The position numbers and the translations under genes are program-made. A DNA stretch of 64,000 bases, from the NCBI RefSeq assembly GCF_003003235.1, contig NZ_PVUE01000003.1, positions 181,150 through 245,149 on the forward strand. The letters run 5' to 3'. The DNA comes from Antricoccus suffuscus (lineage in GTDB: Bacteria > Actinomycetota > Actinomycetes > Mycobacteriales > Antricoccaceae). The notes beneath the pieces are model-generated. The model was not told the DNA's origin, searched no databases, and saw nothing but the letters and a program-made list of their open reading frames with translations. Positions 1,427 to 24,165 of the stretch are shown in pieces (the stretch's first letter is position 1; each line of letters begins with the position of its first letter).

Positions 1427-1438
1427 GAGGTCCGCCCG

Positions 1439-2131
1439 CTACGCGTGCGCGTTTTGGGGTTTGTCCGCGACCAGCCGATAACCCATTCCGCGCACGGTCT
1501 GCAGTGTCGATAGCTCGTACGGCACGTCGATCTTGCGGCGCAGATATCCGATGTAGACCTCGACCACGTTTTCCGCGCCGTCGTACGCCGGATCCCATAC
1601 GTTGGCGAGGATCTCGCTCTTCGAGACGATGGCACCCTTTTGCCGCATAAGGAAGTGCAGCAGGCCAAACTCCTTGGCGGTCAACGGAATTTCGTCGCCG
1701 TGGCGGGTGACCGAACGGCGCCCAGGGTTGAGGTTGAGCGACCCGATTGTCAATTCGACGGGGCGGGCGGGAGCGCCGCGCCGGATCAACGCGCGCAAAC
1801 GTGCGGTGAGGACCAGGAAGCTAAACGGTTTAGTCAGGTAGTCATCGGCGCCAAGGTCGAAAGCGTCCGTCTGGTCATACTCGCCGTCTTTTGCCGTGAG
1901 CATCATGATCGGTGTCCAGATCTTGCGTTTGCGAATCTCGCGCAGCACGTTGTAGCCGTTGAGCCCGGGCAGCATGATGTCGATGACGATGACGTCGAAG
2001 CGCTCCTCGGTCGCGGCCCAGAGCCCGTCGTTGCCGTTGTGCTCGACGCGTACGACGAACCCCTCGTTGACCAGTCCGCGCCGGATGGTCTCGGCGAGTG
2101 CTTGTTCGTCTTCGATAATCAGCACCCGCAT
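1439..2131 (-). CDS. OmpR/PhoB-family response regulator
   Basis: Receiver domain (MRVLIIEDE ... DVIVIDIMLPGLNG ... MLTAKD) plus winged-helix C-terminus (LTAKEFGLLHFLM ... GMGYRL). ATG at 2131 is preceded by GGAGGAG 6 nt upstream. The 30-aa upstream in-frame extension in the ORF track shows no homology. Confidence 0.85.
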   Translation of the reverse strand: MRVLIIEDEQALAETIRRGLVNEGFVVRVEHNGNDGLWAATEERFDVIVIDIMLPGLNGYNVLREIRKRKIWTPIMMLTAKDGEYDQTDAFDLGADDYLTKPFSFLVLTARLRALIRRGAPARPVELTIGSLNLNPGRRSVTRHGDEIPLTAKEFGLLHFLMRQKGAIVSKSEILANVWDPAYDGAENVVEVYIGYLRRKIDVPYELSTLQTVRGMGYRLVADKPQNAHA

Positions 2132-2217
2132 GCCTAGCTCCTCCGCCGAGTTCGATTCTTGACGGTTCTGATCGTGCCACCGCTGCCTGAGGAAATCCTG
2201 AGAACGTCTCAAAGTGG

Positions 2218-3699
2218 TCATGGTGCGTCGTCTACGGGCAAGGTGAATCGGAACCGGCAGTAGCCTTGGGGCGATTCGGTCGCGACGATCGTGCCGCCAT
2301 GCGCGGTGACGAACTCTGCGGCGATCGCCAGCCCGAGTCCGCTGCTGCCGCTGTCGCGTGAGCGGCTGTCGTCCAGGCGGACGAAACGTTCGAAGATGCG
2401 TGTGCGGTCGGCCCGGGGCACGGCCGGGCCGTCGTTGTCCACGTCCACGGTCGCAATGCCGCCCTCGACCCGGCAGCTGACCCAGATCCGTGAGTTTGCG
2501 TGCCGTTCGGCGTTGTCCAGCAGATTGCGTAGCACCTGCGCGATCCGGGCCCCGTCACATACGACTCGGATTGGTTCGGCGCGTACGACGAACTGTTTGC
2601 TGGATCCGCCGCCGACGGCTCGGGCTTCGTTCTCGATGAGGTCGTCGAGGTCCTGTTCGGTACGCCGCAGGTGCACCTGATGGTCGTCGGCCTTGGCCAG
2701 CGTCAGCAGGTCATCGACCAGGCTCTTCATCCGGCCGGTCTGGCCGAGTAGCACCGGCTGCATGTCGCGCCACGTGTCGCCGGTCTCGTCCGCGATGGCG
2801 ATCTCGAGGGTGGCGTTGAGGGTGGCCAGCGGGCTGCGCAGCTCGTGGCTCGCGTCCGATGCGAAGCGCCGCTGCGCCGCATCGGACTCCTCAAGCCGAG
2901 TCAGCATCGCGTTCATGGTGGTGGCGAGCCGGGCGATCTCATCGGCCGTCGGCGGTACGTCGATACGTTGGCTGAGCCGGGAGCGGCGTACTCCGTCGAC
3001 CTGTTCGCGGATGCGCTCGACCTCGTGCAGCGCCCGTCCGACCAGCAGCCAGGTCAGCCAACCGACCACCAACAGCAACACCGGAATGCCGACCAGTAGG
3101 TAGAGCCCGACGGTGCGCACGGACTGCTTCTGTACGTCGATCTCGGCCATCACGTTGACGGCGTACGCCTTGCCGCCGCTGAGGAATCCGACCGATGTGA
3201 CGACCGGGTCATCCTCGTGAGCGTTGATGTGTGGCGACCCTGCGGGATAGCTGACCGTCTGCCCTGGGGCGGCGGGTGTTTTGACGAGCGAGTGCTCCAG
3301 GTACTCCTCGTGCGCGGCGGCGACGACCTTGTCCTTGGAGGTGACGATCTGCACCTCTTGGCCCTTGTGCGTGAGGTCCTTGGCAAGTGTCGGTACGCCG
3401 GGAACCGTTTCCCCGGCGTACTTGCCGGCGAGGTCTCGTGCGGTAGACACGGTCTGGCTGGTGGCGTCGTTGACCAGAGCCTGCTGGAGCAGGACCAGGA
3501 GCAGAGCGCCGCCGGCAACGAGCGCGAGGAGCACCACCGAGGTGGCGGCCAGGGTAGCTCGGATGCGCACGCCCCATCGTCGGTGGTTGGAGGTGCGGTG
3601 CGGCGAAAGGGGCGCAACCACGGTCTCGTTAGGCTCCGGCGCTACCGTCGCGGGACGGTGCAATAGGCGCCGGAGTCGGTACGGGCGCGGGCGTGTCAA
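2218..3699 (-). CDS. Sensor histidine kinase (two TM helices, periplasmic sensor domain, HAMP, HisKA, HATPase_c)
   Basis: H-box SHELRSPLATL, N-box LLDNAERHA, G-boxes DNDGPAVP and GSSGLGLAIA. Two hydrophobic segments flank a ~130-aa extracytoplasmic domain. Start uncertain (TTG at 3699 or GTG at 3570). Confidence 0.8.
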   Translation of the reverse strand: MTRPRPYRLRRLLHRPATVAPEPNETVVAPLSPHRTSNHRRWGVRIRATLAATSVVLLALVAGGALLLVLLQQALVNDATSQTVSTARDLAGKYAGETVPGVPTLAKDLTHKGQEVQIVTSKDKVVAAAHEEYLEHSLVKTPAAPGQTVSYPAGSPHINAHEDDPVVTSVGFLSGGKAYAVNVMAEIDVQKQSVRTVGLYLLVGIPVLLLVVGWLTWLLVGRALHEVERIREQVDGVRRSRLSQRIDVPPTADEIARLATTMNAMLTRLEESDAAQRRFASDASHELRSPLATLNATLEIAIADETGDTWRDMQPVLLGQTGRMKSLVDDLLTLAKADDHQVHLRRTEQDLDDLIENEARAVGGGSSKQFVVRAEPIRVVCDGARIAQVLRNLLDNAERHANSRIWVSCRVEGGIATVDVDNDGPAVPRADRTRIFERFVRLDDSRSRDSGSSGLGLAIAAEFVTAHGGTIVATESPQGYCRFRFTLPVDDAP

Positions 3700-7972: not shown

Positions 7973-8196
7973 GCGTCGCGGGTCGTCAGAAAGGTCCTGC
8001 GCATCAGTCGCCGACGGGTGCTGGTCGCGTCACGTTTTTATCAACCGTGGCGGGTGGCGAGCGGTGGTGCGAGGCCCCGGCACGTCGTGAAGTGGGGTAG
8101 TTTGCGACAGTTAGTAGTGCTGTCGCGCCGCGATCGACGTACCGAAGTCGGTTGAGCGTGACCGCGTGAGCACGTTTTAGACCACTGGGAGTACCG

Positions 8197-11124
8197 ATTT
8201 CCACCACCGATGCGACAGACGAAGAACTGCAGCTGGGTTCTGACTCAGACGCTGAAGCCGACGGCCTTGCCACTGACACGAGCGGGGACGGCACGACCGC
8301 ACGCCCGAAGAAGTCCCGCGCCAAGGCCCGCGTCGGTGGCAAGAAGCTGGTCATTGTCGAGTCGCCGAAAAAGGCTCAGATGATTGCTGGCTACCTCGGC
8401 GACGATTACATGGTCGAGGCGAGCTACGGGCACATCCGGGATCTGCCCCGCAAGGGCTCACCGATACCCGCGAAGTACAAGGGCGAATCGTGGGCGCGGT
8501 TGGGCGTCGACACGGACAACGGCTTCATGCCGGTGTACGTCGTCGGTCCGGACAAGAAACAGCAGGTCGCGAAGCTCAAGAGTCTTCTGGCGCAGGCCGA
8601 CGAGCTCTACCTCGCCACGGACGAGGACCGCGAAGGGGAGGCCATTGCCTGGCACCTCGCGGAGATCCTCAAGCCAACCGTCCCAGTGCACCGGATGGTG
8701 TTCCACGAGATCACCCCGGCCGCGATCCGGGACGCGATTGCCAACACCCGTGAGCTCAACAACGACATGGTCCAGGCGCAGGAAACTCGCCGGGTCCTAG
8801 ATCGGTTGTACGGCTACGAAGTTTCGCCGGTCCTGTGGCGCAAGGTCGGTCAGGGCCTATCGGCTGGCCGGGTGCAGTCGGTGGCGACGCGCATCATCGT
8901 CGAGCGCGAGCGCTTGCGGATGAAGTTCAAGGCGGCCGACTACTGGAGCGTCAGCGGCGACTTCGCGACAGGGCTTAAAAACGACGATCCGCTCGAGCCA
9001 GGCTCGGTCAAGGCGACCCTCATCAACCTCGACGATCGCCGGGTAGCCGTCGGCCGCGACTTCGACCCCGACACAGGCCTCGCCGCGGCCAGCGTCGTAC
9101 ACCTTGACGAGTCTGGCGCCCGCGGCCTCATCGCGCGCCTCGAGGGTGCGGCATTTGAGGTCACCCGGGTCGATGAGAAGCCATACCGGCGTCGTCCGGC
9201 GGCGCCGTTCATGACCTCCACGCTGCAGCAGGAGGCCGGACGCAAGATGCGCTGGTCGAGCTCGCAGACGATGCGTACGGCGCAGCGACTGTATGAAAAC
9301 GGCTTCATCACCTACATGCGTACCGACTCCACGACGCTGTCGGAAACCGCGTTGAGCGCGGCCCGCAACCAGGCTCGCGAACTGTACGGCGACAAATACG
9401 TCCCGGCCGAGCCCCGCCGTTACCAGCGCAAAGTCAAGAATGCGCAGGAGGCGCACGAGGCGATCCGTCCGGCTGGTGACCAGTTCCGCACACCGGGCCA
9501 GGTGGCGAATCAGATGTCCTCAGACGAGTTCAGGCTCTACGAGATGGTCTGGATGCGCACGATCGCCTCTCAGATGGCCGATGCCGTCGGGCAGACCGTC
9601 TCAATCCGGCTGACGGGCGACTCCAGCACAGGTGAAAAGGCGGAGTTCAGCGCGACCGGTACGACGATCACCTTCCCGGGTTTCCTTCGTGCCTACGTCG
9701 AGTCGAAGGACGAAGACGACAGCAGCGGCAGCGACGACGAAGAGCGCCGGATGCCGAGAGTCGCGAAAGGCCAAGCGCTCACCGCTACGGACCTCACCGC
9801 CAAGGGCCACACGACCCAGCCGCCGGCCCGCTACACCGAACCGAGTCTCGTCAGCGCGTTGGAGGAGCTCGGTATCGGCCGGCCCGCGACGTACGCCTCA
9901 ATCATCCAGACAATCCAAGATCGCGGATATGTATGGAAAAAGGGCTCCGCGCTGATTCCGTCGTTCACAGCGTTTGCCGTCGTCACGCTCCTCGAACGCT
10001 ATTTCACCCGACTTGTCGACTACGACTTCACCGCCCAGGTCGAAGGCGACCTCGACGACATCGCCGATGGCACCCGCAGTCGTGTTGACTGGTTGACGCG
10101 CTTCTACTTCGGCGGCACCGGTGGCGAAGAGGGCGGCATCGCCCAGCTTGGCGGGCTGAAGAAGCTCGTCGCGGACAACCTCGGCGAGATCGACGCCCGC
10201 GGGATCAACTCGATCCCGCTCGAGGGCGGCGTCGTCGTACGCGTCGGCCGCTATGGGCCTTATCTTCAGCAGGGTGCGGACGATGACAGTCGGCGCGCGT
10301 CGGTGCCGGACAATCTGGCGCCCGATGAGCTGACGCCTGAGAAGGTCGAGGAGTTGCTGTCCGCGCCGTCGGGCGACCGGCCGCTCGGCAACGATCCGGA
10401 GTCCGGACAGGAAATCATCGCGAAGTCCGGTCGCTACGGGCCGTATGTCACGACCGTTCCCCCGGAAGACTCCAAGGAGTCCCCGCGGACCGCGAGCCTG
10501 TTCAAGTCGATGGACCTCGACACGATCACGCTTGAGGATGCGCTGAAGCTGCTCCAGATCCCGCGCCTCGTCGGCGCCGATGCCGAAGGCAACGAGATCC
10601 AGGCACTCAATGGTCGCTACGGTCCCTACCTCAAGAAGGGGTCGGACTCGCGCTCGCTGGAGACCGAGGAACAGATCCTCAACATCACGCTTGAAGAGGC
10701 GCTCGCGATCCTCGCCCAGCCGAAGCAGCGCGGGCGGGCGGCCGCGAAACCGCCGCTGCGCGAGATGGGTGACGATCCGGTCAGCGGCGTGAAGATGGTG
10801 GTCAAGGACGGTCGTTTCGGCCCGTATGTCACCGACGGTGAATACAACGCGTCACTGCGCAAGGACGACACGGTCGAGGAGTTGACCGACGAACGCGCGG
10901 CCGAGCTACTCGCCGACCGGCGCGCACGCGGCCCGGCCAAGAAGGCCAAGCGCGCGGCGAAAAAGGCACCCGCGAAGAAGGCGCCGGCGAAGAAAGCCGC
11001 CAAGAAGGCGCCCGCGAAGGCGACTGCTAAGAAGACCACGGCAGCTAAGAAGACCACTGCGACCAAGAAGACCACGGCGAAGAAGACCACCGCAGCGAAG
11101 GCTCCCGCCAAGAAGTCGACCTAG
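8197..11124 (+). CDS. topA: DNA topoisomerase I with C-terminal lysine-rich repeat tail
   Basis: Toprim and Topo IA motifs (SYGHIRDL; catalytic-Tyr region GYITYMRTDS). C-terminal KKAPAKKA / KKTTA repeats are typical of actinobacterial TopA. The conserved N-terminal KKLVIVESPKKAQ is encoded upstream of the first ATG (8380), and there is no in-frame ATG/GTG/TTG back to the stop at 8167. A possible ATT start at 8197 sits 5 nt after GGGAG. Start coordinate uncertain. Confidence 0.85.
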   Translation: MSTTDATDEELQLGSDSDAEADGLATDTSGDGTTARPKKSRAKARVGGKKLVIVESPKKAQMIAGYLGDDYMVEASYGHIRDLPRKGSPIPAKYKGESWARLGVDTDNGFMPVYVVGPDKKQQVAKLKSLLAQADELYLATDEDREGEAIAWHLAEILKPTVPVHRMVFHEITPAAIRDAIANTRELNNDMVQAQETRRVLDRLYGYEVSPVLWRKVGQGLSAGRVQSVATRIIVERERLRMKFKAADYWSVSGDFATGLKNDDPLEPGSVKATLINLDDRRVAVGRDFDPDTGLAAASVVHLDESGARGLIARLEGAAFEVTRVDEKPYRRRPAAPFMTSTLQQEAGRKMRWSSSQTMRTAQRLYENGFITYMRTDSTTLSETALSAARNQARELYGDKYVPAEPRRYQRKVKNAQEAHEAIRPAGDQFRTPGQVANQMSSDEFRLYEMVWMRTIASQMADAVGQTVSIRLTGDSSTGEKAEFSATGTTITFPGFLRAYVESKDEDDSSGSDDEERRMPRVAKGQALTATDLTAKGHTTQPPARYTEPSLVSALEELGIGRPATYASIIQTIQDRGYVWKKGSALIPSFTAFAVVTLLERYFTRLVDYDFTAQVEGDLDDIADGTRSRVDWLTRFYFGGTGGEEGGIAQLGGLKKLVADNLGEIDARGINSIPLEGGVVVRVGRYGPYLQQGADDDSRRASVPDNLAPDELTPEKVEELLSAPSGDRPLGNDPESGQEIIAKSGRYGPYVTTVPPEDSKESPRTASLFKSMDLDTITLEDALKLLQIPRLVGADAEGNEIQALNGRYGPYLKKGSDSRSLETEEQILNITLEEALAILAQPKQRGRAAAKPPLREMGDDPVSGVKMVVKDGRFGPYVTDGEYNASLRKDDTVEELTDERAAELLADRRARGPAKKAKRAAKKAPAKKAPAKKAAKKAPAKATAKKTTAAKKTTATKKTTAKKTTAAKAPAKKST

Positions 11125-11127
11125 GTC

Positions 11128-11901
11128 GTGACCCCGGTCAATGTGGTCGCTCTCGGCGACAGCGTGTCGGAGGGCGTGGGTGACCCGGGCAAGGGTCGTC
11201 TTTTGGGCTGGATCCACCACCTGACAACCGATCCGGAAATCGCGACCGGTCTCAACCTGCCGACCAACTTTGCGCTGACCGGAGCGAAGATCTGCGACGT
11301 ACGCCGTGATCAGCTACCGCAGGCGCGCGCGATGGACGCGGATCTCTACATCTGCGTGATCGGCGTCAACGACGTGATGTCGAGCAGCTTCCGACGATCG
11401 CGGTTCGAGGCCGACTACGACTACGTCATCGACGCATTGATGAACGTAGCTCGCCGCGGTGTACTGACGATGACGCTGCACGACGTAGTTGGAGGCATCC
11501 CGCTTCCGGCAAGCAAGTTGGCCTGTCATCGCGACCGCGCCGAGCAGGCCAACCGCGTGATCGAACGCGTGTCGGCGAAGTACGGCGCGTGGCTGCTCGA
11601 GGCGCGAGACGCGCTGCCCATGCGGGGCAGTGGAATGCTCAGCATCGATCGGTTGCACCCCAACCGGCGTGGTCATCGCTACCTCGCGTCGATGGCCGCC
11701 GCCGAGCTGCACGCCCATGGTGTGGTGCCGCAACCGCCAAAGCTGACGGTCCCGCCGGCGCAGCCGTTGCGCGCTCGTAGTCTCGGTGCGGCCCGTCATG
11801 GGCTGTGGCTCGGGCGCCACCTGACCGCGCCGGTCGTCGATCACGTCTGGTTCAGGGCAGCGCGGCGTACCGACGGGGGATCGCTGACTCCGCTTTCTTA
11901 G
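11128..11901 (+). CDS. SGNH/GDSL-family hydrolase
   Basis: Block I motif VVALGDSVSEG. GTG start 3 nt after the topA stop. 3' end overlaps the convergent AlkZ-like gene by 50 bp. Confidence 0.7.
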   Translation: MTPVNVVALGDSVSEGVGDPGKGRLLGWIHHLTTDPEIATGLNLPTNFALTGAKICDVRRDQLPQARAMDADLYICVIGVNDVMSSSFRRSRFEADYDYVIDALMNVARRGVLTMTLHDVVGGIPLPASKLACHRDRAEQANRVIERVSAKYGAWLLEARDALPMRGSGMLSIDRLHPNRRGHRYLASMAAAELHAHGVVPQPPKLTVPPAQPLRARSLGAARHGLWLGRHLTAPVVDHVWFRAARRTDGGSLTPLS

Positions 11902-12910
11902 TGAAGGTGGTAAACGGCGTCGCGGAGACGGTTGCCTTCTTGCCGCTGCCGTGGCGTTTCCAGGTGCCCACCACTGCGCCGTTGTCGACGACGGACGCCA
12001 TGAACATGCCGTTGTTGCCAGGGACGAGGCGAGGGGCGAACTTGGTCGGTAGGGCCGCGCCGCGGTCTTGATAACCGAGCATGAACTCGTCGAACCCGGG
12101 TAGCAGGAAGACGCCCTTCGCGTTGGCGCTGTGCTCCGCGAGCCGGTCCGGTGTTTGCGGATCCATAAAGTATTCGACGCCGTCGACTTCGACGCGCTCG
12201 AGAAACGGTCGGGCGATCGCGAGTCCGGCCTTGACATCAACCATCAACAGCTTCGTCCACCACGCGAAGTCTTTGACCGTGGCCGGTCCGTGGCTGCGGA
12301 AGTAGCGCAGCGCCCACTCGCCGACCGCTTCGTCGCGATCGAGCCTCCGCGGTCGGCGTACCCATTCGTCGAGCATTACGAGCCGTTGCTCGCCTTTTTG
12401 GAAGGGGCCGAAGCACAGTACGCCGAGCTGCGCGAGCTGGAAGATCAGGCGATAACCTTGCCCGGGCGCGACGACTAGGCCGGCTTCATCCCAAAGGGCG
12501 AGGAGTTCGCTGCGGCGTAGTTGGCCGCCGCCTTCCAGAGCGGTGACGGCCACCTTGCGAGCCTGGTCGATCATCGCATCGTCGATGCCGAGCTCGGCAC
12601 GCCGGGGCGCGGTCGCGATGATCATCCGAGCCGCCGTGAGGCCAAGCATCCAGCCGAGATCTTCGCCTGCGACGAAGTGCAGCGTGCCGCGCATCGGCCA
12701 CGACTTCACGATCTCGCCGGCATCCATTGCCTCATGCACACCGGACCGATCTCGCCCGGCGGTGCGTAGGGCAACTGACGTGACGGCACCGGGATCTTGC
12801 GCCTGGACGGCGGTCATCCATTGCACCGCCTCGCCGGCCGATCCGAAGCCGGGTCCGGCGATGCGTTGCGCGGCTAGCCGAAGTCGCGCGAGGTCTCGTT
12901 GGCTCGTCAT
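11852..12910 (-). CDS. Winged-helix DNA glycosylase of the YcaQ/AlkZ (HTH_42) family
   Basis: Length (~352 aa) and overall pattern match HTH_42 / YcaQ-AlkZ proteins. The N-terminal region has Q-A-Q-D (AVQAQDPG), resembling the catalytic Q-phi-Q motif. Start is ATG 12910 or TTG 12943. Confidence 0.65.
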   Translation of the reverse strand: MTSQRDLARLRLAAQRIAGPGFGSAGEAVQWMTAVQAQDPGAVTSVALRTAGRDRSGVHEAMDAGEIVKSWPMRGTLHFVAGEDLGWMLGLTAARMIIATAPRRAELGIDDAMIDQARKVAVTALEGGGQLRRSELLALWDEAGLVVAPGQGYRLIFQLAQLGVLCFGPFQKGEQRLVMLDEWVRRPRRLDRDEAVGEWALRYFRSHGPATVKDFAWWTKLLMVDVKAGLAIARPFLERVEVDGVEYFMDPQTPDRLAEHSANAKGVFLLPGFDEFMLGYQDRGAALPTKFAPRLVPGNNGMFMASVVDNGAVVGTWKRHGSGKKATVSATPFTTFTKKAESAIPRRYAALP

Positions 12911-12978
12911 CGCCCGACAGTAGTCAACGACCCCGACAAACAACGTGCCACGACCTGTCCGCGCGGTGTAATCGCGCG

Positions 12979-14622
12979 CTATCCCAGGCGGGCGTAGTCG
13001 ATGATCGCCTCGTAGTCGACGTTGCGCAGAGTGCCGAAGCCTGGACCCCAGTCGCCGCCCAGCCGACTATCGATGAATGCTTCGGCGACAACGGTTGGCG
13101 CATGCTCCAGCAGCAGGGCCGCCTGGGTTGCCAACGCGATCTTGGTGACAAGGTAGCGCGCCGTATCGGCTGGGGAGTCCAGCATCGACTCGATGTCGCG
13201 CATCGCCTGGTCCAATGCGGAGTGCGCGCCGGAGACGGTCCGGATCTCGTCCAGGATCGGTTCGATCGTCTTGGGCTCACGGGTGAGGACCCGACCGACA
13301 TCCATCACCATCATGTTGGAGGTACCTTCCCAGATCGCATTCAGCGGCGCTTCGCGGTAGTAGCGCGGCAGCGGGTGTTCCTCGATGTAGCCGTTGCCGC
13401 CGACGCACTGAATCGACTCCTCGACTACCGCGCTTACTCGGCGGCAGTTCCAGTATTTGCTCACCGGTGTCAGAAGCCGGCTCGTCAGCGAGTCCTCCAG
13501 ATCGTGGCCGTCTTCGGCCCGGGCGACCCGGAATCCCAAGTGCGCCGCGCCGGCCCATTCCAGCGCGAGGTCGGCGAGGACCGGTGCCTGGATCGGTAGA
13601 TCGGACAGTCGCTTTCCGAAGGCCCCGCGGTAGTCGTTGTAGAAGAGTGCCTGCGATAGTGCCGCCCGCATCAGGCCGGCCGAACCGACGGCGAAGTCGA
13701 GCCGGGTGTATTCGGACGAGCTGAGGATGGTGCGAATGCCGTGTGCTTCTTCGCCGACCAAAATCGCGTATGCATCGTGATACTCGATCTCCGACGACGC
13801 ATTCGCCCGGTTGCCAAGTTTGTCTTTGAGGCGGTTGATCCGGATTCCGTTGGGGGTGCCGTCGGGTCGCCAGCGCGGCACGAACAGGCACGACGTACCA
13901 CCCTCGGTCTGCGCGACGGTGAGGTAAGCGTCCGACATCGGTGCGCTGCAGAACCATTTGTGGCCGTTCACGATGTATTCCTCGCCGTCTCCGCGCGGCC
14001 CGACGGGGCGGGCGACGGTCACGTTGGCGCGCAAATCGGAGCCGCCCTGTTTCTCGGTCATCGCGTAGGCGATCGTCGCCGCCCGCTTCGTCTCGATTGG
14101 TGCGTACGCCGGGTCGTAGTCATGCGCCGCCACGCGCTCGGCCCACGGCGCGAGCGCCGGATGCGCCCGCAGGATGGGGATCGCGGCGTACGCCATTCCC
14201 ATCGGGCAGGCAGTGCTGCCGTCGACTTGATTCCACAGGTAGGACTGGACCGCGCGCGCGAGATGGGAGCCTTGTTCCTTGCTCGTCCAAGCGAGAGCAT
14301 GGGCGCTGGCGCCGAAGGCCATCGACATGAGCTCGTGGTACGCCGGATGGAACTCGACGACGTCAAGCCGGTTGCCGACTCGGTCGAGGGTGCGCAGCTC
14401 AGGCAGGAAACGCTGAGCGTCGCGGGCCGCTCGAAGGGTGTTCGGATCCCAGACGAGATCGCCCAGGTCGGTGGCGTTGTGCTCCGACCACGGCGCGAAT
14501 CGAGCGAGGACGTCGGTCGCGATCTTGTCTCCGGTAAATGCGTTGACGTTATTGAGGTCGGGAACGAGGTTGGCGGCGCTCTCGCGTGGGCGGGTGAAAT
14601 CGGACTCGGCAGCACTGGTCAT
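12979..14622 (-). CDS. AidB-like acyl-CoA dehydrogenase family protein (putative DNA alkylation response protein)
   Basis: 547 aa. ACAD fold with C-terminal GGNGYIEE ... YYREAPLNAIWEGTSN and an N-terminal ~150-aa extension. Size matches E. coli AidB (541 aa) rather than a FadE. Confidence 0.65.
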   Translation of the reverse strand: MTSAAESDFTRPRESAANLVPDLNNVNAFTGDKIATDVLARFAPWSEHNATDLGDLVWDPNTLRAARDAQRFLPELRTLDRVGNRLDVVEFHPAYHELMSMAFGASAHALAWTSKEQGSHLARAVQSYLWNQVDGSTACPMGMAYAAIPILRAHPALAPWAERVAAHDYDPAYAPIETKRAATIAYAMTEKQGGSDLRANVTVARPVGPRGDGEEYIVNGHKWFCSAPMSDAYLTVAQTEGGTSCLFVPRWRPDGTPNGIRINRLKDKLGNRANASSEIEYHDAYAILVGEEAHGIRTILSSSEYTRLDFAVGSAGLMRAALSQALFYNDYRGAFGKRLSDLPIQAPVLADLALEWAGAAHLGFRVARAEDGHDLEDSLTSRLLTPVSKYWNCRRVSAVVEESIQCVGGNGYIEEHPLPRYYREAPLNAIWEGTSNMMVMDVGRVLTREPKTIEPILDEIRTVSGAHSALDQAMRDIESMLDSPADTARYLVTKIALATQAALLLEHAPTVVAEAFIDSRLGGDWGPGFGTLRNVDYEAIIDYARLG

Positions 14623-14777
14623 TTTTTGGTCCTTTGCTTGGGCTGTTAGTCGACAATGCGCGCCGCGGCGGGTCGGTGGTGATCGCCCGTACGACCTCCA
14701 ATTCGCGTGTGCAGATCGAATCGAGCATCATGATTCATCAGTGGATCAGGATTGATTCCTGACGTCAACGAGCAGTC

Positions 14778-16793
14778 TCATTCGCCGGCGTTCTTGCGCC
14801 GGCCGGCCTTCTTGATCGTGCGAGATGGTGTTTTACGGCTCGCGGGATAGGTCGTGTAGCGACGCCCGGTGGGGCTGATCCAGTCGATGCTGGCGTCGTC
14901 GTTGAGGGTGAGCCGCCACCCGGTCTGGTGTTTCACTCGATGATGTAGCGCGCACAGGCATGCCAGATTATGGTCGGCCGTCGACCCGAGCGGGAACTCC
15001 ACGACATGGTCGAGGTGACAGTACTGCGCCTTGCGTGCGCAGCCCGGGAAGCGGCAGGTCTGGTCCCGGGTGATAACTCGCCGGCGCATGTCGGCTGGTA
15101 TCCGATAGCGGGTTTTGCCGACGTCATAGACGATGCCGGTGACGGGATCGGCGAGGACGCGTCGCCAGCGAGCGTCGCGAGCGAGGTGGCGGGCGAGGTC
15201 GGGGTCGATCGGACCGACTCCGTCGAGGACTGCGGTATGCCGCGCCGCGATTTCGTCGTTCTCGTCGTGCTGATCGCTGTCGTCGGGCACACGTGTCCCT
15301 TCGTCGAAATGGTCGGTTCGATTGGTGCGTGTGCCATTGTCGTCGGGCACAGGTGTCCCGTCGTGCTCGGCGCGATCCCTGCCGGCGAGTAGGTCAACCG
15401 GGATCGTCACGTCCAGATGCACGTCGGGTGGCCTGGGGATTGTGAAGTTGAGTTGCGCGGCCAGCTGCCGGATCATCTCCCACAGTTCACCGACCCGTTG
15501 GACCTCGCTCGGATCGATCAGCGGCAGGATCCGTTCGTTGCCACCCCATAGCGCCCGTCCCAGCCGGTCGGCGTCGTGTTCGGGCTTGTAGAAGGTGAAG
15601 TCTGGCTCGTCATCATCCCGGGCGACGGCTAGCGGTAGCCCACGATAGGGATCCGGCACGTCGTCCTCGGCGCTGCTGTCCGTGCCGGTTGTTGGAGCAA
15701 CGTCAGCATCGCGGCTACCTACTGCGCCGTCTGTGGCATCCGTATCTTTGTCGCCCGCGGCCTCGTCGCTGTCGTCGCAATCGGAGGCGTGGGGATCGGC
15801 GCGCTGAGGGTCGACGTAGCCGTATCCGTAATCGGGCTCCGGTTCGTCGTTGTCGCAGTAATCGGCGTTCTCGGCCGCATCGCCCGGACCCGTGGCAGCG
15901 CCGCCGCCATGGTGGCCGTTAGCGTTGTCGCGGCCATCGGCGTTGCCCGCTGGAGTGGTGAACGCGGCCGGACCCAGCACACAAGTCACGAGCGCATCCG
16001 CGCGCAGCTGGTCGCGGGTGCGCGGGTCGTCCGGGTCCGCGGTATCGGCCAGTGCATCAAGCGCGAGGTCGAGAGCTTTGGCTTGAGCGGCGGGTAGCTC
16101 GCCGAGCAAGTGCGCGACCATCCCATCGGGCATGATGGCGACATAGCGGTCGTCTTCACGGTCTCGTCGTGTTTTGGCCGCAAGCGGTGCGCCGAGCACG
16201 GTGATGATCGCCTCGCGGATTCGCCGAGCCCATGACACGCTCGTATCACCCGCGGCGTGCGGCAGCACCAGCTTCTCTACCGCTTGCTTCTGCTCACGCG
16301 TGAGCGCGTTGGTCTCGGCCAGCAAGATGTTCAACTTTGCCGGCGTCACGCCACTTGCGGCCCGGGTGAGTGCATTGACCGTGTCCGGGAAGTTTTCCCC
16401 GGCGTTCAGGGCCTTGTCCAAGCGTCGACCCGCGGTGCGCAGGCTCAGCCCGCAGTCCGGCGCGTATTCGCTCAAGACAAGTTCGCGGGCATTGAGCCAC
16501 GCGTCACCGCGGTCGGTTGTGCCATCGGTATGTGGTCGGGGTGCGCCCGGGAAGGTGCCTCCGGGAAGCAGGGTGAAGGCGTGCCGGTGAGCGGTAAGCA
16601 AGGCCGTAATTTCGCGGTAGGCCAGCAGCGCCTGCGCGTGTTCGAGAGAAGCGAGCTCGCAGAGCTGATGGTCGAAGACGCGTTCGGAGTAGCTCGACTC
16701 GGGAAGACTGGCCAGGTGGCTAGAGTCGCCACGACTGCCACCGTCGCTGGCGACGGCGCCGCCGGAGAGCGAGGTTTCCTGGGTCGTGGTCAT
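14778..16793 (-). CDS. DUF222 / HNH endonuclease-signature protein (REP13E12-type) with an expanded acidic linker
   Basis: C-terminal HNH motif CRFPGCARKAQYCHLDHVVEF ... NLACLCALHH. The ~100-aa Asp/Glu-rich low-complexity insert is encoded at ~15700-16000. Confidence 0.8.
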   Translation of the reverse strand: MTTTQETSLSGGAVASDGGSRGDSSHLASLPESSYSERVFDHQLCELASLEHAQALLAYREITALLTAHRHAFTLLPGGTFPGAPRPHTDGTTDRGDAWLNARELVLSEYAPDCGLSLRTAGRRLDKALNAGENFPDTVNALTRAASGVTPAKLNILLAETNALTREQKQAVEKLVLPHAAGDTSVSWARRIREAIITVLGAPLAAKTRRDREDDRYVAIMPDGMVAHLLGELPAAQAKALDLALDALADTADPDDPRTRDQLRADALVTCVLGPAAFTTPAGNADGRDNANGHHGGGAATGPGDAAENADYCDNDEPEPDYGYGYVDPQRADPHASDCDDSDEAAGDKDTDATDGAVGSRDADVAPTTGTDSSAEDDVPDPYRGLPLAVARDDDEPDFTFYKPEHDADRLGRALWGGNERILPLIDPSEVQRVGELWEMIRQLAAQLNFTIPRPPDVHLDVTIPVDLLAGRDRAEHDGTPVPDDNGTRTNRTDHFDEGTRVPDDSDQHDENDEIAARHTAVLDGVGPIDPDLARHLARDARWRRVLADPVTGIVYDVGKTRYRIPADMRRRVITRDQTCRFPGCARKAQYCHLDHVVEFPLGSTADHNLACLCALHHRVKHQTGWRLTLNDDASIDWISPTGRRYTTYPASRKTPSRTIKKAGRRKNAGE

Positions 16794-16881
16794 GAATTAA
16801 TCATAGAACATGCGTACGACAAGAATGTTGGCGTTTTTCAGCGCACGTGTTCAGTGCGGTCGCCATCTATTGGTGGGCAAG

Positions 16882-19353
16882 CTATGGAGCGGCGTATCTT
16901 TCGCGGACGGCGAGGCGGCGCTCAAGCTCGTCGGTCATGTCGACGACGGTACGACGCAGCGAACCTTCGAGGCCCTCGGTCTGGATCAGCGCCCGACACT
17001 GGTCCAGCGTGCCCGGTGACAGTGACGTGATCGGAAAGAACCATCCTGCGGCATCGGCCAACACCCATCCGCTGCGGACCGCCACAGTGCCTGGTAACTC
17101 GGCGAAGTAGCGCTCTACGTACGGCTCCGTCAGGGACTCCTGGCCGGTCCGCCACATGGCAGTTCCGGCCGCCTCGAGTTCGTAGTTGGGTACGTCGTCC
17201 TCGCCGGTGAACCGCCGCCACGCCCAATCCTTGGCCTCGGCGTCTGGAAGCGAGGCGACGGCGCGCGTATGTTCGACGATTGCCCGTGCCGTGGAGTCGA
17301 CCTCGAGCGCCTTCGCCAAGTCGTCGCGGTCAGTCTCGCCGAGAACGGCAAGGCGCACCAGGATCCGCCACCGTAGGTCCAGATCGATGCGCAGTCCGGC
17401 CGGCAGCGAGCGTCCCGACAGCCATGCGCGAAGTTTGGCTGGATCTGTCGATGAGCTTGCGGCGGACTGGAAAGCGGATAGTTGCAACGTCGAGTCTGCG
17501 GGCGCATTGTCCAGCAGCGCAAGGCAAGCGCGGTGAATGCGTCCGAGCGCTAGGGGTTGATCGGCCGAAAGCGCGGCGACCTTGCCGATCGCCCACGGCA
17601 TCGTGGCGCCGATCGCGTCGTCGTTGTCCTCGACCGGGATTGCAGCCTCGACGAGTGAGAGCACCTGTGCGGGATCGATGGCTGCGTTGTGGAATGCGCT
17701 GCGTACGCCGTTCCAGACTCCCGCCCGCATCAGTCCGTCCGTGGTTCTCGGGAGCAGTTCGACAAGGGCGTCCACGGTGGTGGCGTCCGGTTGGACGAGC
17801 GCCCAGGTGTCCTCGTGGGGATCGAGTACGACGGCGGCATCCGACGGTGCGGCGTACGGCGTGTCCGGCCCGTCGACGGTGATGGTGTCGATGCGCCAGT
17901 CCTCGCCTGGGGCCGCGACGCCGACCCGTAGGGTGTGCCGGCGATCGGCCGGGTAGTCCGACGGGGGAGTACGCCGTACTGCTCCCGCTGAGCGATCCAG
18001 CGCGAGTGTGTCGGGTCCGGCGGTGCGCAGCCAGCTGCTGGTGAACGTCGAAAGATCCGCGGCGCCGGCTTTCTCCCAGCTGTTGAAAAGATCGTCCATG
18101 GTCGCGTTGCCGAATCGGTGCGTTGTGAAATGGTCGATCGCGCCGCGCATGAACACGTCGTCGCCGATCGCCGTGTTGAGCTGCTTAAGAATGCTCGAGC
18201 CTTTTGTATAAGAGATGCCGTCGAAGTTCTGCAGCGCGGTCGAAGCGTCGGCCGCGCCGTTTCCCGCAACCGGATGAGTGCTTGGCCGCTGGTCGGCGAT
18301 GAGTCCCCATTGGCGTCGGGCGAAGGCATTGTGGGTCCACGCATCTGCGTACTCGGTGACGTCGGCGGTCACTCGATTGCCCATATATTCGGCAAACGAC
18401 TCGTTGAGCCACAAGTCGTCCCACCACTGCGGTGTAACCAGGTTGCCAAACCATTGGTGTGCCATTTCATGGGCTAGCGTCGTCGCACGCCGAATTCGGT
18501 CTCCTCGGGTGACCCGACTGGAGAAGACAAGCGGGTCACGGAAAGTCACGCATCCCGGGTTCTCCATCGCGCCGGCGTTGAACTCCGGGACGAATGCCTG
18601 GTGATAGTCGCCGAACGGGTAGCGAATCCCAAAGAGCCGGTGGTATTCATCGAAGCATTGCCGGGTCATCGTCAAGAGCTCGTCTGCGTCGGTGTCGAGA
18701 TCCTTGGCGATGCTCTGTCGGGCCGAGAGTCCGAGTGGTATTCCGTCATGTTCGTCGCGGATCAGGTAATAGGGCCCCGCGACCAGGGTGACGAAGTACG
18801 TCGACAGCGGCTGACTTTTCGCGAACTCCCACACTCCGGTGGAAACTTGTTCGCCCGGCGCGTTGCCCACGACGATCCAGTCGGGTGGCGCGGTGACGTG
18901 GAACGTGTACGGCGCCTTCAGATCCGGTTGGTCGAAACACGCGAAGATGCTTGGCGCGGCGTCCATGAAGGACATCCCATAGACGTAGTGCCGCCCGTCC
19001 GCCGGATCGACGCTGCGGTGCAGGCCCTCGCCATCGTTGCGGAAGCGCATCACCGCGTCGACGGTCAGCTCGTTCGGTCCGTCGATCGTCTCCAGCGGCA
19101 GCCGGCCGCGATCCAGCAGGTCGGCATCGATAGCTCGACCGTTCAAGCGAATATCGTTGATCCGTAAGGGTTTCAGATCCACGAACGTGCGTCCACCGTG
19201 ACTGTCGAAGCGGACCGTCGTGACCGAGCGGTACGTCGCATCATCGGCGGCGAGGTCCAGCCGCACGTCGTACGACCGCACAGTCAATAGCTCGGATCGG
19301 GCCTGTGCCTCAGTGTGTTGAAGGCTGTAAAAGGGAGCGTCGGTAGTAGCCAC
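16882..19353 (-). CDS. pepN: Aminopeptidase N (M1 family)
   Basis: Zinc motif HEMAHQWFGNLVT ... WLNESFAEY and GAMEN motif (NAGAMENPG). Confidence 0.9.
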   Translation of the reverse strand: MATTDAPFYSLQHTEAQARSELLTVRSYDVRLDLAADDATYRSVTTVRFDSHGGRTFVDLKPLRINDIRLNGRAIDADLLDRGRLPLETIDGPNELTVDAVMRFRNDGEGLHRSVDPADGRHYVYGMSFMDAAPSIFACFDQPDLKAPYTFHVTAPPDWIVVGNAPGEQVSTGVWEFAKSQPLSTYFVTLVAGPYYLIRDEHDGIPLGLSARQSIAKDLDTDADELLTMTRQCFDEYHRLFGIRYPFGDYHQAFVPEFNAGAMENPGCVTFRDPLVFSSRVTRGDRIRRATTLAHEMAHQWFGNLVTPQWWDDLWLNESFAEYMGNRVTADVTEYADAWTHNAFARRQWGLIADQRPSTHPVAGNGAADASTALQNFDGISYTKGSSILKQLNTAIGDDVFMRGAIDHFTTHRFGNATMDDLFNSWEKAGAADLSTFTSSWLRTAGPDTLALDRSAGAVRRTPPSDYPADRRHTLRVGVAAPGEDWRIDTITVDGPDTPYAAPSDAAVVLDPHEDTWALVQPDATTVDALVELLPRTTDGLMRAGVWNGVRSAFHNAAIDPAQVLSLVEAAIPVEDNDDAIGATMPWAIGKVAALSADQPLALGRIHRACLALLDNAPADSTLQLSAFQSAASSSTDPAKLRAWLSGRSLPAGLRIDLDLRWRILVRLAVLGETDRDDLAKALEVDSTARAIVEHTRAVASLPDAEAKDWAWRRFTGEDDVPNYELEAAGTAMWRTGQESLTEPYVERYFAELPGTVAVRSGWVLADAAGWFFPITSLSPGTLDQCRALIQTEGLEGSLRRTVVDMTDELERRLAVRERYAAP

Positions 19354-21659: not shown

Positions 21660-22349
21660 ATGTCCGTCCTCCTGCTATTACGAAGTGGTTGCATGAATAT
21701 CGACGCGATTCTCACGAGCATCCCAGTGGCTCTCGTGTATGTGTTGGTCGCGTTGTTTGTCGGCGTCGAGAGCCTGGGTATCCCGCTGCCGGGCGAGATA
21801 GTGCTCGTGGCCGCGGCGCTCTTGTCCTCGCACCCGGGCCTCGGTGTGTCGCCAATCTGGGTCGCCGTTGCCGGCATCCTCGGCGCCGCTGTAGGCGACA
21901 GCATCGGATACGGCATCGGGCATCGGTACGGGCGAAGACTTTTCGCGGTGATGGGTCGACGATTCCCCAAGCACGTCAACGATGACACCGTGGCGTACGC
22001 CGAGCACATCTTTCGTCGGTTCGGCGTACTCGCGGTGTTTTTCGGCCGGTTCATCGCGCTGCTGCGGATCTTCGCCGGCCCCCTGGCCGGCATGCTGCGG
22101 ATGCACTACCGCCGTTTCCTCGCGGCCAACATCGCGGGCGCGGTGTGCTGGGCCGGCGGTACGACGCTACTGATCTACCTGCTCGGAACCGTCGCCGACC
22201 GATGGCTCAAGGACTTCTCCTGGGTCGCCCTTCTGATCGCGGTCGTCGTCGGCATCGCCGCGGCGGTCCTACTGCGGCACCGAGTCGAACGCAACATGCA
22301 CGCGTTTATCGAGTCCCGGCGCACCGGGAGCGTCGATCAGGCCGAGTAG
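21660..22349 (+). CDS. DedA / SNARE-associated family membrane protein
   Basis: DedA core (ESLGIPLPGEIVLV ... GDSIGYGIGHRYGRRL). Confidence 0.8.
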   Translation: MSVLLLLRSGCMNIDAILTSIPVALVYVLVALFVGVESLGIPLPGEIVLVAAALLSSHPGLGVSPIWVAVAGILGAAVGDSIGYGIGHRYGRRLFAVMGRRFPKHVNDDTVAYAEHIFRRFGVLAVFFGRFIALLRIFAGPLAGMLRMHYRRFLAANIAGAVCWAGGTTLLIYLLGTVADRWLKDFSWVALLIAVVVGIAAAVLLRHRVERNMHAFIESRRTGSVDQAE

Positions 22350-23158
22350 GTCACGGTGAGGGGCGCGTGGTCGCTCCACCGTTCGGCGTACGTCGTCGCG
22401 CGACCTACCTCCGCGGCGACCGAGCGGTTCGCCAGGCCGCGCGTCGCGAGTTGATAGTCGATCCGCCAGCCGGTGTCGTTGTCGAAGGCCTGACCACGCC
22501 AGGTCCACCAGGTATAGGGACCTGGTCCGATGCCGCCATGCTTGCGACCGAGGTCGACCCATGCGCCGTCGAGTTCTTCGCCGCCGAGCCAGCGGTCGAA
22601 GTAGGCGCGCTCGTCCTCGAGAAATCCGGCCTTGCCGCGGTTGCCGCGCCAGTTCTTCATGTCGACCTCGCGGTGCGCGACATTGAGATCCCCGGTGATG
22701 AGCGCTTCACCTGCGCCACGGGCGGCACGCTGCGCGAACTGGTCCATGCGTACGTGCATCGCGTCCATAAACCGGTACTTGTCCGCTTGCTTCGGGGTGT
22801 CGGCCTCGCCGGTGTGGGTGTACGCCGACACGACCGTCAGCAGACTGTCACCGTCGACGAAGTCAGCCTCGACCCACCGCCCGTCGGTCTCGAACTCACC
22901 GAGCCCGGTCCGGACCTCGAGAGGTTGCCGCCCGGACAGGATGGCGACGCCCGCGCGGCCGGCCTGATCGGACGGCGCGTGTGCGACTTGCATGTCTGCC
23001 AGGGGCGAGTCGCTGAGCGCAGCGGCGAGCTGCTTGTCGTTTGCACGCACCTCCTGCAGGCAGATGATGTGCGGATCACGGTCGGCTAGCCACTTCACTC
23101 CGCCGCGCCGTTGCGCGGCGCGGATTCCGTTGACGTTGGCGGAGATGACGGTGAGCAA
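22337..23158 (-). CDS. xthA: Exodeoxyribonuclease III
   Basis: ExoIII/APE1 motifs (ISANVNGIRAA, ICLQEV, ITGDLNVAHREVD, WSDHAPLTV). Probable TTG start at 23158 with GAAGGA upstream. The longer N-terminal extension in the ORF track is Arg/Pro-rich and was not called as coding. Confidence 0.85.
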   Translation of the reverse strand: MLTVISANVNGIRAAQRRGGVKWLADRDPHIICLQEVRANDKQLAAALSDSPLADMQVAHAPSDQAGRAGVAILSGRQPLEVRTGLGEFETDGRWVEADFVDGDSLLTVVSAYTHTGEADTPKQADKYRFMDAMHVRMDQFAQRAARGAGEALITGDLNVAHREVDMKNWRGNRGKAGFLEDERAYFDRWLGGEELDGAWVDLGRKHGGIGPGPYTWWTWRGQAFDNDTGWRIDYQLATRGLANRSVAAEVGRATTYAERWSDHAPLTVTYSA

Positions 23159-23265
23159 AATTCTGGTCCTTCGTACTGATGTGATGATGCGGGCCGGTAC
23201 GGCGGCGTACGCATTCTTTTCCACTTGTGCAAAAGCGACAACGATACATCTGCGGCGTCGGCAAG

Positions 23266-24165
23266 TCAGCGGTGGTGGGCCAGCCGCGCCAGTGTGGTGG
23301 CCACCTCGTTGGGTCGATAGTCGCGGCGGCTCACCATGCGCAGCAGTCGGCGCAGGTCGAGCCCGTGGACGGGGACCTCGACAAGCCGGCTGTCGGCGAG
23401 TTCGGCCGCGACCGCAAGCTGGCTGATCACCGTGCACCCGGCGCCGGACGCGACGCTGATCTTGACCGCAGCGTTGCTGTCCAGCTCAAGCAGGTCGACG
23501 GCGTCGAGATTGCCGAGCGCACGCTCGAGCACCTCGCGGGTGCCAGAGCCCACCTCGCGGACGACGAGCTGGCTGGCGGCGAGCTCTTTGCGCGTGACGG
23601 CGCTCGCACGACCGGCGAAGGGATGTCCCGGTGCGACCACCAGTCGCAGCTCGTCGCGTCGTACTGTCGTCGCGGTCAGATCGGCTGGTACGCCGGGGGA
23701 CTCGACAAAGCCGACGTCGCAGCTGCTGGCACGGACCGCGTCGATGACGCCCGCGGAGTTCATGACTTCGAGCCGGACCGCGGCGTCGGGCATCGCGGTG
23801 CGCAGCTTCGCGAGCCAGATCGGGACCAGATACTCGGCGATCGTCTGGCTTGCCGCGACTCGTAGTGTGCCGGTGTGCGCCGCGCGCAGGGCCGCCGATC
23901 CGGTCAGGAGTGCCTCGGTGGCCTCAAGCACCCCACGCGCCCATTCGGTGACGACCCGCCCGTTATCGGTGAGGGAAGAACCGCGGGTGCTACGTCGCAA
24001 CAGCTCGACGCCGAGCCGTCGTTCGAGTACGGCGATCCGCTTGCTCGCTGATGGCTGGGTAATGCCTTCCCGGCGGGCGGCCGCGCCGATCGAACCGCAG
24101 TCGGCAATCACCACGAGAAGTCGGATCGCATCGAGGTCCGGTAACGGACGACCCACTTCAGTCAT
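23266..24165 (-). CDS. LysR-family transcriptional regulator
   Basis: N-terminal HTH (LDAIRLLVVIADCGSIGAAARREGITQPSASKRIAVLE) plus substrate-binding domain. Divergent from the metallophosphoesterase gene. Confidence 0.85.
   Translation of the reverse strand: MTEVGRPLPDLDAIRLLVVIADCGSIGAAARREGITQPSASKRIAVLERRLGVELLRRSTRGSSLTDNGRVVTEWARGVLEATEALLTGSAALRAAHTGTLRVAASQTIAEYLVPIWLAKLRTAMPDAAVRLEVMNSAGVIDAVRASSCDVGFVESPGVPADLTATTVRRDELRLVVAPGHPFAGRASAVTRKELAASQLVVREVGSGTREVLERALGNLDAVDLLELDSNAAVKISVASGAGCTVISQLAVAAELADSRLVEVPVHGLDLRRLLRMVSRRDYRPNEVATTLARLAHHR

Follow-up and report, generated by a model that had tools for sequence, protein, structure and literature searches.

The 64,000-nt stretch of Antricoccus suffuscus DNA analyzed here (hereafter the window; assembly GCF_003003235.1, contig NZ_PVUE01000003.1, positions 181,150 to 245,149; G+C content about 65%) carries two neighboring genes that are read in the same direction on the minus strand. 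The upstream gene (12979..14622) encodes a 547-aa flavoprotein of the AidB/FadE8 family, and the downstream gene (11852..12910) encodes a homolog of the HTH_42 DNA glycosylase AlkZ, 352 aa long when counted from its ATG. Between the stop codon of the aidB-like gene and the ATG of the alkZ-like gene lie 68 nt (12911..12978, minus strand). On its other side the alkZ-like gene converges with a plus-strand gene for a GDSL-family lipase/hydrolase (11128..11901; Pfam Lipase_GDSL_2), the 3' ends of the two genes overlapping by 50 nt (11852..11901), and the GDSL gene is preceded by topA (8380..11124, plus strand), which belongs to the conserved neighborhood of alkZ. An initial annotation had described the aidB-like and alkZ-like genes, at these coordinates and with this spacing, as an apparent two-gene repair operon. 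The sequence confirms the layout in every detail; the comparisons that follow argue against the operon.

We scanned one genome per species for orthologs of the AlkZ-like protein and obtained 80 loci (45-64% identity) from Pseudonocardiaceae, Micromonosporaceae, Geodermatophilaceae, Rhodococcus/Prescottella, Tomitella, Georgenia and others; the sequence upstream of the ortholog extends for 2 kb or more in 74 of them and for 5 kb or more in 68. A tblastn search with the AidB-like protein detected no AidB-like gene within 8 kb of the ortholog at any of the 80 loci. All that it returned were three weak and generic acyl-CoA dehydrogenase (ACAD) matches, 24-29% identical and several kb off. Likewise, none of 33 independent metagenomic loci has an AidB-like neighbor in the flank available, many of these contigs being short (a 34th locus was excluded as the same contig as L081, one of the close relatives described below). 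Neighboring gene families were derived from GC3-based gene calling, in which the alkZ gene itself went uncalled at 19 loci; the tblastn test for AidB is independent of these gene calls. No neighboring gene family is common beyond the Geodermatophilaceae among the 80 loci. The most frequent neighbor, found at 14 loci and only in that family (L025, L036, L062 and 11 others), is a protein of ~148 aa encoded just downstream, which by eye resembles a small deazaflavin-dependent nitroreductase-type protein.

Each of the three closest relatives has a junction of its own upstream of alkZ. L081 (AlkZ 86% and AidB 92% identical) has the gene order pepN, aidB, an ACAD gene on the opposite strand, cupin, alkZ, GDSL, topA, whereas L083 (AlkZ 88%, AidB 94%) reads aidB, a HigB-like gene, a gene for a 362-aa HEXXH protein and alkZ. 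L082 (AlkZ 73%) has no AidB-like gene, and its alkZ, followed by GDSL, stands next to an unrelated gene whose product is by eye similar to a channel C-terminus. Close relatives hold 1.6-1.8 kb of other genes at the position of the 68-nt gap. Conversely, L081 retains alkZ-GDSL-topA in this order, and L082 and L083 both retain alkZ-GDSL; the two 3' ends overlap by 50 nt in L081 and by 32 nt in L082. The stable neighborhood of alkZ in the Antricoccus clade is GDSL-topA, and the region upstream of alkZ, given the different genes found there in L081, L082 and L083, is a variable junction. In L083 the insert (886..2297 of that locus) consists of the HigB-like toxin gene and then the gene for the 362-aa protein, which combines an N-terminal region resembling a helix-turn-helix (HTH) with its HEXXH metallopeptidase motif (LHELAH). 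The two genes resemble a HigB/HigA pair, and the insert looks like a mobile element of the toxin-antitoxin type.

The same picture emerges from the loci of the other partner. Orthologs of the AidB-like protein are 70-78% identical across Actinobacteria and sit in contexts that are either reminiscent of acyl-CoA metabolism or unrelated, as in Nocardia, where the order is TetR, aidB, acyl-CoA ligase. None of the three such loci from Blastococcus, Nocardia and Pseudonocardia has a PF06224 gene as a neighbor. Lack of conservation of the pair was among the outcomes that the initial annotation had itself named as refuting it, and the pair turns out not to be conserved. By this comparison of loci, the aidB-alkZ adjacency is a lineage-specific juxtaposition, a chance neighborhood and not a conserved module. 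With a dedicated aidB-alkZ module, the locus would have offered a new repair system; in view of the evidence for a chance neighborhood, that claim is to be dropped.

The 68-nt gap also contains an element that goes with alkZ. When the window, L083 and L082, each with a different upstream gene, are aligned over the sequence that precedes alkZ, ~35 conserved nt are seen to end at the ATG. Within this block, and kept in both relatives, lies TGTCGGGGTCGTTGACTACTGT (12917..12938, minus strand). In it, a -26 element (TGTCGG) and a -10 hexamer (TACTGT, 12917..12922) stand 10 nt apart, and it agrees at every specified position with the PafBC consensus tGTCgg(N10)tA(N3)T (PMC8635444). The element also fits the RecA-NDp / recA P1 consensus tTGTCRgtg-8nt-TAnnnT, with one lower-case mismatch (PMC5656591). 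Only 6 nt (12911..12916) separate the -10 hexamer from the alkZ ATG. In the actinobacterial transcription-start maps of Cortes et al. from 2013, a -10 element about 6 nt before the ATG is reportedly the geometry of a leaderless mRNA.

This geometry depends on the choice of start codon. The ATG at 12910 is favored over a TTG at 12943, since the start of most of 25 aligned homologs falls no more than a few residues away and since L10, R11, L12 and Q15 are invariant among them. The public annotation of the A. suffuscus protein (P0001) is a 321-aa model that is 31 residues short, which would place its start at Met32 and omit 12818..12910. The N-terminus left out in this way is conserved in homologs, with the same four invariant residues, and the shorter model would conceal the leaderless promoter geometry.

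A relaxed form of the pattern, TGTCR-N11-TANNNT, matches twice in the 64-kb window, where 1.0 match is expected by chance. Each of the two, TGTCGGGGTCGTTGACTACTGT and TGTCGTACGCATGTTCTATGAT (16800..16821, minus strand), stops exactly 6 nt short of a start codon, that of the alkZ-like gene in the first case and the ATG (16793) of a gene of the DUF222 family in the second. We then examined the orthologs of the alkZ-like gene, pooling genomic, metagenomic and closest-relative loci into 102 usable ones. The strict motif is present at 6 of these, where the background is 0.0007 per 95-nt window (p = 2e-10), and a looser version, GTC-N12-[T/C]ANNNT, at 29, where it is 0.019, or 1.9% (p = 5e-26). Where the motif is found, it tends to begin at -27/-28 relative to the start codon. 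The alkZ-like gene thus appears to have a PafBC-type promoter of its own that is leaderless and DNA-damage-responsive; it is from motif, spacing and conservation that we infer both the dependence on PafBC and the leaderless initiation.

No PafBC motif was found upstream of the aidB-like gene or in four distinct loci of AidB orthologs. One candidate upstream of the aidB-like gene, TTGTCG at 14651..14656, was rejected as a PafBC promoter because AAGCAA stands where its -10 hexamer would have to be. The aidB-like ATG is preceded by a Shine-Dalgarno-like AAAGGA. A consensus scan of 11600-15000 detected no sigma-70-type -35/-10 promoter, and no Rfam family was found in 11000-17200. Since TGTCGGGGTCGTTGACTACTGT is conserved with alkZ and not with aidB, the two genes are predicted to be differently regulated, and alkZ is predicted to be transcribed alone after DNA damage. 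Our literature search found no stand-alone AlkZ-like glycosylase reported as a PafBC target. It returned PafBC and AlkZ together only in work on the Lhr C-terminal domain, and its sole co-mention of AidB and YcaQ is, judged by title, unrelated.

The assignment of the upstream protein to the AidB family holds. An A. suffuscus database entry (P0121) matches this protein at 100%. The protein contains the Pfam domains AidB_N (PF18158, E = 2.8e-45), Acyl-CoA_dh_M (PF02770) and Acyl-CoA_dh_1 (PF00441), shares 40% identity with E. coli AidB across 510 residues, and has a Brucella ACAD (5ez3, 412 bits) and E. coli AidB (3djl, 352 bits) as its best PDB matches. Residues W431-E432 (codons at 13327..13332, minus strand) align with W424-E425 of E. 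coli AidB. Trp424 is described as shaping the AidB substrate pocket and cited as setting AidB apart from other ACADs (PMC3236019); the same source assigns DNA binding by E. coli AidB to the C-terminal ~100 residues and describes the C-terminal region of Brucella AidB as likewise unconserved. The C-terminal region of the Antricoccus protein can be aligned, at low identity, to residue 520 of 541. On a crude charge comparison its last 99 residues are acidic (net -8, isoelectric point 4.5), compared with a net charge of +1 and an isoelectric point of 7.9 in E. coli AidB. On the strength of the AidB_N domain, the Trp424 equivalent W431 and the alignment into the C-terminal domain, the upstream protein is by sequence a true member of the AidB family and not an ordinary FadE; the initial annotation had named clustering with ordinary FadE enzymes as something that would refute it.

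Membership in the family does not make the protein an equivalent of E. coli AidB. Its score of 429.4 bits with the E. coli AidB equivalog model PRK11561 (NCBIfam) is under the cut-off of 545. Although it shares the AidB_N and ACAD domains, the Trp424 equivalent and a similar length with the AidB proteins of E. coli and Brucella and with FadE8 of M. smegmatis, it differs from the E. coli protein in having no Ada-regulon context (no ada, alkA, ogt or alkB among the called genes of the 64-kb window), and the contexts of its orthologs suggest acyl-CoA metabolism. Its C-terminal ~100 residues are poorly conserved and acidic, as described for Brucella AidB. In both E. coli and Brucella, AidB homologs show alkylation phenotypes, protecting from alkylating agents (PMC3236019). 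The characterized actinobacterial homolog, FadE8 of M. smegmatis, has weak isovaleryl-CoA dehydrogenase activity and binds DNA non-specifically (PMC7432924). Within the AidB/FadE8 family the Antricoccus flavoprotein is nothing out of the ordinary, and whether alkylating agents or an acyl-CoA are its target, nothing ties it to the glycosylase.

Taken together, we consider it probable that the aidB-like and alkZ-like genes are independently inherited and independently regulated, that they are neighbors only in the Antricoccus lineage, and that the glycosylase is a stand-alone protein of the AZL type. Their junction would then lie inside a conserved core region that runs from pepN to the aidB-like gene on one side and through the alkZ-like gene and the GDSL hydrolase gene to topA on the other. 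Several points weigh against this reading. The two genes share a strand and are separated by a short gap with no predicted terminator, the scan of 11600-15000 having found no intrinsic-terminator-like site in the 68 nt. Read-through from aidB into alkZ may therefore occur in A. suffuscus, albeit without comparative support, and by analogy the two genes may be loosely related in function at the level of "alkylation stress" (PMC3236019, PMC7432924). The PafBC-type motif is missing in most ortholog loci, for instance those of Pseudonocardiaceae (L001-L005), and in Geodermatophilaceae the -10 element is CANNNT and not TANNNT. There are no pafBC genes in the 64-kb window, and that A. suffuscus has PafBC is an assumption drawn from the general conservation of the regulator among Actinobacteria (PMC8635444). 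Finally, the glycosylase activity of the subfamily is a prediction.

The most serious alternative is an operon that is real and specific to this lineage. Loss of intervening genes would have fused the aidB-like and alkZ-like genes into one unit responsive to alkylation or crosslinks, and the internal PafBC promoter would add induction. The arrangement itself suits such an operon, as do the protection that AidB homologs afford E. coli and Brucella against alkylating agents (PMC3236019) and the DNA binding of FadE8 (PMC7432924). A hairpin of the form CGCGCG-loop-CGCGCG just after the aidB stop, considered as a possible I-shaped terminator, was dropped because the region folds no better than shuffled sequences (z = -1.05). 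However, the adjacency recurs in no other locus examined, and at the same position the nearest relatives carry different inserts, including the opposite-strand gene of L081. The promoter-like element stays with alkZ whatever gene lies upstream, while aidB and its orthologs are without the motif, and the C-terminal region of the AidB-like protein is acidic, in contrast to the region with which E. coli AidB binds DNA. Of the features expected of a two-gene operon, a common strand, a short gap and the absence of a terminator are found here, but conserved adjacency and the lack of a separate promoter for the distal gene are not. We therefore regard a lineage-specific operon as unlikely and prefer two independent genes.

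What the stand-alone gene encodes can be read from its family. The AlkZ-like protein matches Pfam PF06224 over its full length (residues 29-346 on profile positions 1-321 of 329) with an E-value of 2.2e-54 and 185.8 bits, far above the cut-off of 25.9, in agreement with the HTH_42/AlkZ assignment made initially. Its sole significant sequence match in the PDB is AlkZ of Streptomyces sahachiroi (5uuj; E = 2e-17 from the sequence alone, 2.5e-32 from a profile; 25% identity). An AlphaFold2 model of the protein (pLDDT 79, pTM 0.77, with low confidence in the C-terminal ~80 residues) has the same structure as its top fold match (TM-score 0.66, E = 7.5e-12), followed by AlkX/YcaQ 9zd6 (TM-score 0.49). 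The best 120 database matches, from several actinobacterial orders, are 57-88% identical, besides the organism's own entry at 100%.

The subfamilies of these enzymes are defined by motif, namely Q-phi-D for YQL, (Q/H)-phi-Q for AZL and H-phi-(S/T)-(D/E) for AZL2 (PMC9040887, PMC7367128). In the Antricoccus protein the putative catalytic Q-phi-Q and the acidic residue after it are Q36-A37-Q38-D39 (codons at 12794..12805, minus strand). Both the phmmer and the profile alignments place Q36-A37-Q38 on the "vQaQ" of AlkZ, where its catalytic-motif residues Q37 and Q39 lie, with top posterior probability, which settles in favor of AlkZ the initial proposal that the protein has the Q-phi-Q of AlkZ and not the Q-phi-D of YcaQ. 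The third motif position is occupied by Q38 and not by an aspartate, D39 lying one residue beyond it, so that the protein departs from the YQL definition; from the AZL2 motif it departs everywhere except at the fourth position. Assignment to YQL was also rejected on overall similarity, as neither BLASTP (E > 2) nor profile comparison (hhalign probability 0.2%) relates the protein to E. coli YcaQ. By its motif the protein is AZL-type. Q36, Q38 and D39 are invariant across the 25-sequence alignment of homologs, and Q-[A/G]-Q-[D/E] is present at all 80 ortholog loci. The gene is accordingly a member, as judged from these alignments, of a well-conserved actinobacterial subfamily that has an invariant Q-[A/G]-Q-[D/E] and is located outside biosynthetic clusters.

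The fold is of the AlkZ type, with winged helices in tandem and a C-terminal beta domain, and the C-terminal domain of Lhr, a non-catalytic HTH_42 domain, is among the weak fold matches. Given that the glycosylase activity of the subfamily is predicted, the protein could in principle be a DNA-binding or regulatory winged-helix protein and not an enzyme. We find this very improbable, because the two glutamines are invariant among the aligned homologs and the motif is kept at 80 of 80 loci, whereas the Lhr C-terminal domain is without the motif (PMC9040887), and because AlkZ is by far the best match in both sequence and fold. Glycosylase activity and substrate range are stated here as predictions, and we conclude that the protein is probably a stand-alone, damage-inducible DNA glycosylase of the AlkZ-like family encoded outside any cluster.

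The initial observation that no biosynthetic gene cluster (BGC) lies nearby is borne out by the content of the window, which reaches 11.8 kb to one side of the alkZ-like gene and 49 kb to the other. Pfam annotation shows its ~50 called genes to be core or housekeeping genes throughout, including lysX, topA, pepN, mgtE, tmk, holB, ppa, dacB, tilS, hpt, ftsH, folE, folP and genes for an ABC peptide transporter, with no polyketide synthase, nonribosomal peptide synthetase or terpene genes among them. The recurring neighbors of AlkZ-like orthologs likewise include no BGC-type genes. We can hardly credit, then, the idea that the protein is a self-resistance glycosylase for the genotoxin of a nearby BGC, like AlkZ, HedH4 and TxnU/LldU, for although it has the AZL-type Q-phi-Q motif and Streptomyces AZL genes lie on average ~2.3 kb from a cluster (PMC9040887), the window holds no biosynthetic genes, the gene belongs to a core region, next to topA, and its orthologs, 45-65% identical across several orders, are conserved in a way that the diverse, multi-copy, cluster-embedded AZLs are not.

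With a stand-alone, independently regulated glycosylase as the preferred reading, the following sequence of events can be proposed. Upon DNA damage, the activator PafBC would bind within the 68-nt gap, at the -26 element, and enable SigA RNA polymerase to begin transcription from the ATG or immediately beside it; the resulting alkZ mRNA would be leaderless. In the manner of AlkZ and YcaQ, the glycosylase would then hydrolyze the N-glycosidic bond in cationic N7-alkylguanine lesions or in interstrand crosslinks, and the abasic sites left behind would pass to base excision repair.

The predicted system differs in some respect from each of the characterized ones. With S. sahachiroi AlkZ and the other AZLs it has in common the PF06224 domain, the closest match in sequence and fold and the aligned Q-phi-Q; unlike them, the Antricoccus gene lies outside clusters and belongs to a clade that is well conserved across orders. 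The residue after the motif is invariably acidic in this clade (Q-phi-Q-D/E), whereas AlkZ has a valine there, and a PafBC-type damage-inducible promoter is a predicted feature of the Antricoccus gene that also separates it from AlkZ. E. coli YcaQ and Acinetobacter AlkX, both YQL, resemble the protein in their superfamily fold and in being encoded outside biosynthetic clusters, and by analogy with YQL the AlkZ-like protein probably has a general role in genome protection. Its sequence, in contrast, has no detectable similarity to YcaQ, and it has a glutamine at the third motif position in place of the YQL aspartate. E. coli ycaQ is reportedly constitutive and located in the msbA-lpxK operon (PMC7367128), whereas the Antricoccus gene has a damage-response promoter motif. 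The acidic fourth motif position and the non-cluster location are traits of Streptomyces AZL2 (PMC9040887), from which the protein is set apart, by the motif description, through a first position that is Q and not H and a third that is Q and not S/T. The promoter itself, with its -26 TGTCGG, 10-nt spacer and TANNNT, is like the LexA-independent PafBC promoters (RecA-NDp / recA P1-type) of mycobacteria, but is predicted here in a non-mycobacterial actinobacterium.

The locus offers a clear case of a well-conserved HTH_42 glycosylase with the AZL-type Q-phi-Q motif that resides in a core chromosomal region outside any BGC. It extends the picture of YQL, AZL and AZL2 that was drawn from Streptomyces, and the authors of that survey called for neighborhood surveys beyond this genus (PMC9040887). 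More tentatively, and with somewhat more doubt than confidence, we propose that the proteins with Q-[A/G]-Q-[D/E] form a distinct "housekeeping" AlkZ-like clade of non-Streptomyces Actinobacteria that is found outside clusters and that, in several families, is wired to PafBC through a leaderless promoter. The families we have in mind are the Antricoccus clade, Rhodococcus/Prescottella, Speluncibacter and Geodermatophilaceae. If this proposal is true, the unhooking of interstrand crosslinks or bulky alkylguanines by a glycosylase would be an inducible branch of the damage response in Actinobacteria, in contrast with both the constitutive YcaQ of E. coli and the cluster-bound AZLs of self-resistance, and adjacency to aidB would play no part in it. 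Confirmation of the PafBC-type promoter would add an AlkZ-like glycosylase for crosslinks or alkyl lesions to the LexA-independent DNA-damage regulon of Actinobacteria.

The gene behind the second motif match, TGTCGTACGCATGTTCTATGAT, lies on the minus strand between pepN and the aidB-like gene (14778..16793) and encodes a 671-aa protein with a Pfam DUF222 domain. It is the second gene of the window predicted to be leaderless and damage-inducible. In L081 this gene and its surroundings (~2.3 kb, 14578..16905) are absent, pepN being directly followed by aidB, and the segment looks like an insertion. DUF222 genes are those of the 13E12 repeat family. Five putative HNH endonucleases are among the mitomycin-induced genes of M. 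tuberculosis (PMC8151990).

The 5' end of topA is unusual. The conserved Toprim N-terminus of topoisomerase I (KKLVIVESPKKAQ) is encoded upstream of the first ATG, GTG or TTG of the frame (8380), within 8167..8382 on the plus strand, and back to the stop codon at 8167..8169 the in-frame stretch offers only CTG and ATT codons. The stretch 5' of 8380 is 95% identical at the protein level to L081, where the gene model begins at a GTG further upstream; the piece that corresponds to this upstream part lies in another frame in the window and is broken by stops. This pattern suggests that topA, an essential gene, uses a non-canonical start codon, carries a frameshift or contains a sequencing error. 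A minus-strand gene about 9.4 kb away from alkZ (22337..23437) encodes a 366-aa protein of the Endonuclease/Exonuclease/phosphatase family, which has the fold of ExoIII-type apurinic/apyrimidinic endonucleases. Further along, two thymidylate-kinase-domain genes stand in tandem on the plus strand (26044..28194 and 28201..28842) and are followed by holB; the product of the first, 716 aa long, has a fused N-terminal region resembling a transporter of the major facilitator superfamily.

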